Shown here in pieces: positions 29,720 to 29,855 of a stretch of 64,000 nt of DNA. Under the pieces are notes generated by a model. That model was not told the DNA's origin, searched no databases, and saw only the letters and a program-made list of their open reading frames with translations. Location: positions 12,179 to 76,178 of the forward strand of contig JAHJOV010000010.1 of the NCBI GenBank assembly GCA_018820085.1, written 5' to 3'. Origin of the DNA: Patescibacteria group bacterium. GTDB lineage: Bacteria > Patescibacteriota > Minisyncoccia > Portnoybacterales > UBA2143. How positions within the stretch are numbered: the first letter of the stretch is position 1; the number at the start of each line of letters is the position of its first letter. The position numbers were made by a program, and so were the translations under genes.

Positions 29720-29855
29720 TAATAAGAGAGATTTATCCCGCGCCGAATTTATTCTGGCGCGGGGTTTGGTGACCAAATTGAAGGGAATTTTGGCTGCCCC
29801 GTAGTCAACCGAAGGTTGTACTACTGGGGGCGAAAAAATCAATCGACGGTTTTGT
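29720..29855. repeat. Diverged third copy of the IR-A family element (direct orientation relative to 24259-24357) with a 34-bp hairpin insertion
   Basis: ggtgaccaaattgaagggaattttgg[ctgccccgtagtcaaccgaaggttgtactactgg]gggcgaaaaaatcaatcgacggttttgt, versus IR-A ggcgaccaaattgaacggaattttgggcgaaaaaatcagttggcggttttgt. Confidence 0.7.

Follow-up and report, generated by a model that had tools for sequence, protein, structure and literature searches.

The stretch analyzed here, called the window below, comprises 64,000 nucleotides of contig JAHJOV010000010.1 (positions 12,179 to 76,178, forward strand) in assembly GCA_018820085.1 of a Patescibacteria group bacterium. It carries a tRNA-Arg(TCT) gene (24188-24264, + strand; found by ARAGORN, 70.9 bits against the Rfam tRNA model) and, running into it on the minus strand, a 498-aa open reading frame (ORF) for a large serine recombinase (LSR; 24223-25719). 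A perfect 99-nt inverted repeat, IR-A, has its arms at 24259-24357 and 25773-25871 (100% identity over 99 nt). In addition, a third, diverged copy of this repeat, copy 3, lies at 29768-29876 (+), between the stop codon of an arsM gene with a heavy-metal-associated domain (HMA-arsM, 29704) and that of a reverse transcriptase (RT) gene on the opposite strand (30011). We consider it likely that IR-A and copy 3 both derive from a modular mobile element of a single kind, which is driven by the LSR and inserts at tRNA 3′ (CCA) ends in Patescibacteria, and that copy 3 is a stranded head of such an element.

The recombinase ORF has no stop codon of its own. After a core of 454 aa (24358-25719), it crosses the left arm of IR-A and ends inside the antisense tRNA, so that its last 14 codons are antisense tRNA-Arg. 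The left arm (module A/a′, minus strand) consists of the last 33 codons of the recombinase gene adjoining tRNA-Arg, encodes the C-terminal tail QNRQLIFSPKIPFNLVAERSEANHRNLTFPYWC, and is the tRNA-proximal end of the element. The last 6 nt of the tRNA (GCACCA) overlap this arm, and overlaps of 5-6 nt were found in 7 loci. Meanwhile, the right arm (+) repeats the 3′ end of the recombinase gene in inverted orientation. It sits upstream of the recombinase promoter, between module Z, which mimics a tRNA end, and box y, and the same arrangement was found in 7 other loci. The arm-encoded stretch is conserved as protein (QNRQLIFSPKIPYNLVAERSEA..FPYWC in essentially all of 120 cluster representatives of the homologues), and a nucleotide comparison of the arms from eight loci showed synonymous changes. 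Thus, the left arm is the real 3′ end of the recombinase gene and also the element end at the tRNA. We also considered whether the GC hairpin of the arm is more stable than shuffled sequences, and this was true of its long variant only (z = -0.2 for the variant of the window).

The recombinase contains the Pfam domains Resolvase (PF00239, 2.4e-21), Recombinase (PF07508, 3.7e-14), and Zn_ribbon_recom (PF13408, 7.6e-08), and it matched the A118 integrase and SPbeta SprA in the PDB. With the three domains in one protein of >400 aa, it is an LSR by definition. A database search returned >7,900 homologues, and the best 120 of them share 80-91% identity with it and come from many Patescibacteria lineages. 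After the conserved tail, about 74 of the 120 continue into an antisense tRNA (..DSNP/ESNL..), about 10 into Z′, and 4 stop directly after ..NHIL. The run-ons, such as PGRDSNPH or PRQESNL, are antisense translations of tRNA T-arms. Furthermore, within clusters of 90% identity, one variable tail, EPAEAGEATLTIPRW, precedes at least 5 different tRNAs or Z′. The junction between ..W-C and the tRNA is therefore mobile, and the recombinase takes the arm along with it. Single clusters at this identity mix Uhr-, Berkel-, Wildermuth-, Yanofsky-, Gribaldo-, and Falkowbacteria together with one metagenome-assembled genome of Omnitrophota. Short-form recombinases that end at HIL and are joined directly to y were present in three contigs (L009, L010, and L104; L numbers denote the contigs and loci compared with the window). 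The short contig L104 was considered as a circular recombinase cassette and was rejected, as its ends do not overlap. In addition, a 62-aa mini-ORF, in which aa 1-52 are fused to VKNIGSNHIL, recurs in many contigs. An exact look-up of the 498-aa recombinase found no record of it, which is accounted for by the different gene call in L089, where the DNA is the same. Scans of viral contigs gave 0 matches to the DNA motif and 2 partial recombinases, and the element is untypical of phages.

Module names are given on the recombinase-sense strand. The order of modules is y′ q′ r′ - Z - a′ - linker - y - promoter - recombinase (L, 17-nt palindrome, R ... Q, A) - antisense tRNA, where a prime marks an inverted copy (a′ of A, q′ of Q, r′ of R, and y′ of y). 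This full order was found in ten other loci of the candidate phyla radiation (CPR) (L011/L015, L031, L033, L034, L047, L053, L068, L079, and L087), which differ in their cargo and in their tRNA (Arg, Leu, Ala, Gly, and Phe). An initial annotation of the window had regarded the three copies as a possible locally amplified family. This does not agree with a left arm that is the conserved 3′ coding end of the recombinase, nor with an inverted duplicate that occurs throughout the family in these ten loci.

All element modules of the window fall within 24259-34432. Module Q (24359-24384, -; codons KNIGSNHIL) has an inverted copy at 25982-26007 and forms a TTTT-GT-AAAA junction with the arm at 24353-24362. 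L (aa 29-40), the 17-nt palindrome GCCTCGCtatGCGAGGC (25583-25599), and R (aa 46-52) lie in the N-terminal coding region of the recombinase (25563-25636, -). All three of L, R, and Q correspond to short pieces of the recombinase gene, and the cargo is bordered by copies of L and R. The L/R region ranks with the best-conserved 20-nt windows of this gene (0.96-0.97). We considered L, R, and Q as unique conservation peaks and rejected this, as they are among the top windows yet no clear outliers. The region upstream of the recombinase (25720-25767, -) holds the 19-nt box y (25749-25767; GTAAAAGAAAATTTTTTCA on the minus strand), of which 17-19 of 19 positions are identical across loci. Module Z (25872-25959, -) ends like a tRNA 3′ end (..GTTCGAAC..GAGCACCA, that is, ..GTTCGAAC..GCACCA), and a 98% inverted copy of it lies at 34342-34432. 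The head of the first cargo unit (25960-26026, +) consists of a copy of R (25960-25979), a copy of Q ending in TAA (25982-26011), and a copy of y (26008-26026). On the far side, the cargo is closed by the second, inverted Z together with an inverted L (34240-34432, +), and about 200 nt of this right-end module are 87-93% identical in L054, L031, L033, and L061. Its L is split by a 64-nt double hairpin (34258-34321; -27.2 kcal/mol, z = -8) at the same point in the window, L054, and L061, and the double hairpin is thus a conserved variant, no private insertion. In addition, the y′..y block (25748-26027) has an 87-aa ORF on either strand, each the mirror image of the other. One of them is annotated as a gene upstream of the recombinase in several assemblies, and both are probably noncoding.

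The junctions of these modules are informative. They read GCGCAC-CA-GTAAGG between the tRNA and a′, GAGCAC-CA-GTAAGG between Z and a′, and GAGCAC-TA-GTGGAC between Z and the flank, so that the common part is only GCAC(C/T)A. Junctions that have only GCAC in common fit conservative exchange by a serine recombinase with Z.a′ as attP. In such a mechanism, Z next to a′ would be an attP-type junction, the tRNA end and its flank would be attB, and the crossover would fall in the GCAC that both sites share. The integrated element would then keep a spare, inverted attP. Further junction sets also resemble recombination products, namely TTTT-GT-AAAA at both a′|Q and Q|y, and L|Z together with Z′|R.

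The two arms are 0.99-1.00 identical within each of the eight tRNA-adjacent loci, and between loci the mean identity is 0.79 (range 0.65-0.97). Where the recombinase abuts Z′-like sequence, the arms are 98% (L087), 93% (L079), and 91% (L088) identical. Arms that are alike within loci yet divergent between loci indicate concerted evolution, for which gene conversion and inversion are the candidate mechanisms; either may hold the two arms identical. The same pattern could be explained by an inverton, in which IR-A would be a pair of switch sites, the recombinase would flip its own gene and promoter and thereby its tail and its read-through toward tRNA or cargo, and copy 3 would be irrelevant debris. 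This would fit arms that are 99-100% identical in 8 loci and divergent between loci, the roughly 10 of 120 homologue tails that read into Z′ rather than a tRNA, and the recombinase of L008, which is codirectional with the cargo. However, the loci with Z′ tails (L079, L087, and L088) keep Z.a′ upstream in the usual orientation and are no simple flips, and no locus has tRNA|a′|y followed by a full-length recombinase. Furthermore, the window, L089, and L091, which represent this species, all have the segment in the same orientation, and the enzyme is an LSR of 454 or more aa, not a Hin/Gin-type invertase. We regard inversion of the recombinase segment as plausible, and the inverton as a whole as a doubtful explanation that still deserves some weight.

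One pair of loci is instructive for the arms. L088 and L015 (the species of L011) are identical over about 2.8 kb and then diverge inside the tail arm of the recombinase, beyond which one enters tRNA-Arg and the other Z′-R-Q-y and a cargo leader. L088 was considered as a simple flip of L015 and was found to be a recombinant with its breakpoint inside the arm.

The TTTT-GT-AAAA junctions allow a further explanation. The segment 24359-26007 (1.65 kb) might be a mini-element with 26-33-nt terminal inverted repeats (q′/Q). A preexisting unit without recombinase would have received it, inverted, at a TTTT-GT-AAAA core that separated the a′ of this unit from its y. The a′ of the mini-element itself would then give IR-A, and a tail encoded by the target would extend the 454-aa form ending at HIL. 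Both junctions indeed read TTTT-GT-AAAA on the plus strand (24353-24362 and 26003-26012), the q′/Q repeats are 92-100% identical, and the short-form recombinases joined directly to y exist. However, the a′ of the target and that of the mini-element would have separate origins, whereas the two sequences agree fully, including the variable outer 30 nt. Furthermore, the same tail accompanies the recombinase to different tRNAs, and every a′-y junction has a linker of 5-23 nt, so that no clean a′.GT.y target was seen. Thus, we consider the mini-element unlikely.

Copy 3 is a real member of this family. Exactly 3 sites in the window match the 5′ half of inner IR-A (24310-24332, +; 25798-25820, -; 29771-29793, +), and exactly 3 match the other half (24331-24357, +; 25773-25799, -; 29828-29854, +); the repeat count for this organism covers the 64-kb window. 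Shuffled sequence gave 0 matches to either half of the inner 50 nt, as chance predicts. The third copy reported in the initial annotation was thus confirmed, as was its likeness to the inner half of IR-A broken by a strong hairpin. However, its limits differ from the 29720-29855 given there, since the similarity begins at 29768 and runs to 29876. The sequence at 29737-29764 (+) is a separate GC-rich hairpin just upstream (-15.9 kcal/mol, z = -2.6), which occupies the position of the a′ hairpin and is unrelated to it in sequence. Copy 3 is direct to the left arm and inverted to the right arm. Within it, the 5′ half of the inner a′ core (29768-29793, +; 92% match) is followed by the hairpin insert (29794-29827, +) and then by the 3′ half of the core (to 29854), a 5-nt linker (TCTTA), and a y box (29860-29876), which together span 29828-29876 (+). 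The insertion had been given as 34 bp. Indeed, 34 nt separate the matched halves, but the net gain over IR-A is 36 nt. The insert folds at -21.9 kcal/mol (z = -3.9) and occurs once in the window. Downstream of y, a leader (29877-29927, +) carries an AT-rich hairpin (29891-29912) and then a T-run. It is kept in other units without recombinase and is homologous to L072 (83% over 98 nt), L061 (75%), and the end of L088. In all, the stretch between the convergent genes around copy 3 holds four hairpins.

Copy 3 tracks the right arm together with its inner flank (25751-25799; 86% over 49 nt), and therefore it is an a′-linker-y junction. It can be read as a unit head because the inner a′ core, the 5-nt linker, y, and a homologous leader stand in this order. 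Meanwhile, three features mark it as a relic: neither a tRNA or Z nor the outer half of a′ accompanies it, it is followed on the right by a mosaic block, and a unique insert interrupts its core. Most likely, copy 3 is a stranded junction of the a′-y attachment arm and a unit head, which is probably inactive and would not be a third working site. Between copy 3 and IR-A there are 4 substitutions, of which 3 are synonymous in the reading frame of the tail, and the insert is in frame with it as 12 codons without a stop. These features suggest that copy 3 descended from the coding arm of another element copy and not from a local duplication. Its source may be a unit that is older or foreign (the retron-RT block), whose head was trapped by later accretion and deletion. 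The insert was absent from all of the approximately 40 other a′ copies compared, a metagenome scan for the insert junction gave 0 matches, and a protein search with the in-frame translation including the insert found no homologue. In the copies compared, the a′-y linker ranges from 5 nt to hairpins of 23 nt, and the family is prone to short palindromes at module joints; that the insert is a similar scar is speculation. The copy 3 region was the same in independent assemblies (L001-L003, and L089/L095 with 99.985% identity over 20.6 kb), and five assemblies agree across 29.7-30.0 kb. Thus, the arrangement is no assembly artefact.

These data bear on the proposal that the repeats are recognition sites for the recombinase. 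It holds in that the repeats are part of a serine recombinase system and that the tRNA-side arm is most likely the attachment arm; it does not extend to copy 3, which is probably inactive with its core split. In its strong form, the proposal says that all three copies are live, locally amplified sites, and that the enzyme inverts the 1.4-kb segment and deletes or inverts 29.8 kb against 24.3 or 25.8 kb. The three copies are indeed significant and close together, perfect arms flank the recombinase, and the concerted evolution of the arms would fit frequent exchange between them. However, 36 nt that all of the roughly 40 other copies lack interrupt the core of copy 3, and its coding-like substitutions point to another source copy. 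All five assemblies have the same arrangement, and no joint of 29.8 kb to 24.3 or 25.8 kb, which the initial annotation had suggested looking for in reads, was found in any assembly examined. In addition, natural LSRs normally recombine attP and attB sites that are not identical. We therefore think it quite improbable that copy 3 is part of a set of live sites.

A generic intergenic repeat, of the repetitive extragenic palindromic (REP) type or like a miniature inverted-repeat transposable element (MITE), or a terminator accumulating between convergent genes, would account for the position of copy 3 in a hairpin-rich stretch between convergent genes. However, the 64 kb hold just 3 copies, the sequence is part of a coding region in its original setting, and its variation is synonymous. 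A scan with promoter and terminator consensus sequences found neither at copy 3, and there was no terminator-like site in 29600-30100; the insert hairpin is followed by GCGAAAAAA. Rfam covariance models matched two tRNAs and nothing else in the window, and likewise only tRNAs in the outside loci. Other CPR genomes argue in the same direction. We scanned a collection of 185,579 genomes with the a′ core and found 63 stretches, 28 of them in CPR. Each of the 28 belongs to a recombinase end, to a unit head adjoining a tRNA or Z, or to a relic array, and no CPR genome in the scan had more than about 4 copies. Thus, both the terminator-like repeat and the REP element named in the initial annotation are extremely unlikely.

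The CPR copies fall into recombinase-flanking arms, single arms cut by contig ends, units without recombinase, and relic arrays (L021). Units without recombinase have the form tRNA|a′|linker|y|cargo|L|Z (L061, L056, L058, L064, L063, and L054; L072 has tandem units). Cargo units begin with a′-linker-y or R-Q-y and finish with L-Z. L021 has a cassette-like array by tRNA-Arg (4286-7826), in which each of three small cargo genes has Q-y before it and L after it. Collapsed palindromic scars stand where the recombinase and the Z pair would be, and the inverted repeats are collapsed to tRNA | 12 nt of a′ .. 12 nt of A | Z′ and to L | 29-nt GC palindrome | R.

Outside CPR, the scan gave a repeat of Flavobacteriaceae and single chance matches. 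About 35 matches of a 22-mer, mostly in Flavobacteriaceae, were considered as family members and were rejected, since the repeat in question is a different one, which has no recombinase and agrees with a′ over about 23 nt only; we take them as chance or unrelated. This repeat (L016-L074: Salegentibacter, Salinimicrobium, Autumnicola, Mesonia, and Gillisia) is multicopy and consists of GACCAAATTGTACGGAATTTTTG, a variable GC hairpin, and CGAAAAGGAGTAGCAAGAGGGTAAC.. in this order. It has a 23-mer in common with a′, and its hairpin is placed where the insert of copy 3 is. We found no recombinase near it and no Rfam match for it.

The element belongs to an accessory island (24263-36740), which is absent from the empty-site contig L090 (ERZ27247117 k141_42937). 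In L090, tRNA-Arg (..caggcgcac) is followed by "tg" and then by "tgtatggtgccc" of tRNA-His, so that tRNA-His begins 8 nt after tRNA-Arg, and the whole 12.5 kb is gone. The left boundary fits the element end (..GCGCAC|), and the metagenome of L090 also holds island-bearing contigs. In another contig of that metagenome (L097), a different arsM-like gene of 300 aa replaces everything to the left of 31155. A 70-nt remnant at 31155-31225 (+), upstream of the RmuC gene, is identical to the 3′ end of this intact gene and marks a mosaic breakpoint. The empty site and the variant island show that the region is accessory; together with the single tail found beside different tRNAs, they show that the element moves. 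The island is a mosaic of 10-12.5 kb. In addition, the contigs of two assemblies break exactly at y boxes (26008 and 25766), and both L001 and L003 start at 26008.

Based on Pfam and the gene calls of L001, the first cargo block (26054-29704, +) includes an arsM-like methyltransferase, a membrane protein, a corrinoid adenosyltransferase, and HMA-arsM2. The two arsM-like genes are paralogous (26245-26454 vs. 28999-29208; 72% over 210 nt), and the second has the heavy-metal-associated domain at its N-terminus. The RT of the cargo is retron-type (30011-31015, -; Pfam RVT_1; PADLOC RT_II-A, 2.6e-41). An RmuC-family protein, divergent from it, matches the PADLOC model RTasRmuC (defense-associated reverse transcriptase, DRT), and the two genes span 30011-32791. 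The 510-nt intergenic region between them (31016-31525) could hold a noncoding RNA. RT and RmuC are likely a defense module carried as island cargo. Upstream of the island, at about 14000-20800, the annotation of L089 gives three N6/N4 DNA methyltransferases, EcoO109I-like and BsaWI-like restriction enzymes, a SocA/Panacea-domain protein, and a nuclease, and this cluster is followed by type IV pilus genes (PilM/N).

Several points weigh against one LSR-driven element with copy 3 as its stranded head. First, there is no tRNA, Z, or recognizable outer a′ upstream of copy 3, and the call of a unit head was made from the match of inner a′, linker, y, and leader. Second, the block to the right of copy 3 is itself a mosaic, and copy 3 and the L-Z end at 34.4 kb may differ in origin. 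Copy 3 and RT-RmuC-ORF403-L-Z were considered as one intact unit, which is weakened by the arsM remnant at 31155. Third, the gap of L090 ends at 36740, which leaves Z at 34432 unconfirmed as an element boundary. The 2.3 kb at 34433-36740 are also missing from the empty site and carry no element modules, and a metagenome scan for an empty site with the right flank of Z gave 0 matches. Fourth, attP and attB were assigned by comparing junctions. The extra junction sets also look recombined, and it is unlikely that one LSR serves all of them. Finally, the single orientation of the recombinase segment in this species counts here as well.

The element can be compared with known systems. LSR elements (phage A118, phiC31, and SPbeta SprA integrases, and Tn4451 TnpX) have the same domain architecture, with the recombinase gene at the element end, and the proposed conservative insertion with few common bases at the junctions (GCAC here) would be alike. 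However, the element described here targets the 3′ ends of many different tRNAs, and its ORF lacks a stop and is completed by the attachment arm and the antisense tRNA. Furthermore, it retains upstream a perfect inverted copy of the arm of about 100 nt, joined to a tRNA-end mimic, its cargo units are flanked by copies of recombinase-gene segments, and its conservation is extreme (80-91% aa identity across CPR lineages). Tycheposons of Prochlorococcus are tRNA-targeting islands with tandem accretion, and 910 of 937 tycheposons and cryptic elements use a tyrosine recombinase, the rest an LSR (Hackl et al., bioRxiv 10.1101/2020.12.28.424599). They resemble the present island in tRNA-linked integration, modular cargo, tandem arrays, integrase-less remnants, and mixed empty and occupied populations. 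However, no inverted duplicate of the integrase 3′ end has been described for them.

In Hin, Gin, and Cin, a serine recombinase gene also lies inside a segment bounded by inverted repeats. The enzymes of those systems are small (about 190 aa) and act on 26-bp sites with the help of a Fis enhancer, whereas the LSR of the window has a core of 454 aa and coding arms of 99 nt, and a single orientation was seen. Integron arrays with attC hairpins likewise have small cargo genes between conserved junction modules with variable hairpins, as in L021. However, integrons use the tyrosine recombinase IntI, which acts on folded single-stranded attC sites, and here the recombinase is a serine recombinase and the junctions are fragments of its gene, so that the likeness of the L021 array is an analogy only. 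In integration-dependent gene remodeling, attP lies inside a gene, for example in the integration-dependent immunity of mycobacteriophages. Here too the ORF crosses the attachment site, and integration alters the C-terminus of a protein of the element. However, it is the recombinase itself that is affected, and its ORF is extended into the flank rather than truncated. We found no description of this layout in the literature searched. The enzyme is a bona fide LSR and the island is like tandemly accreting tRNA-linked islands, while the arm-completed ORF, the perfectly kept inverted spare junction, the cargo flanked by recombinase fragments, and the extreme CPR-wide conservation are distinctive.

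Copy 3 itself is ordinary debris of an LSR element system. For the window, this means that the perfect repeat IR-A is part of a gene, and that copy 3 is most likely a relic and does not add a third active site. Few mobile elements have been characterized in CPR/Patescibacteria, whose genomes are tiny. The >7,900 relatives, and the different tRNAs within one cluster, point to one highly successful element that moves genes between phyla, and in the window its cargo comprises genes for arsenic/metal methyltransferases, a retron-type RT, and the RmuC-like partner of this RT. As a genome-engineering tool, an LSR able to use the ends of many tRNAs could be of interest as well. In addition, we tentatively put forward a broader possibility, which we regard as less likely than not. 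The element may represent an undescribed CPR-wide class of LSR that homes to the CCA end of almost any tRNA gene. Its attachment arm would complete the ORF (454 aa ending at HIL when free vs. about 490 aa, with the conserved tail, when integrated), a perfectly homogenized, inverted spare attP would be kept by the promoter, and single-gene cassettes would be mobilized or accreted between copies of recombinase segments. If this is true, copy 3 and the other short hairpins would be scars of cassette turnover, and the element would be a serine-recombinase analogue of the integron/tycheposon platform, spreading defense and metal-resistance genes between CPR phyla.

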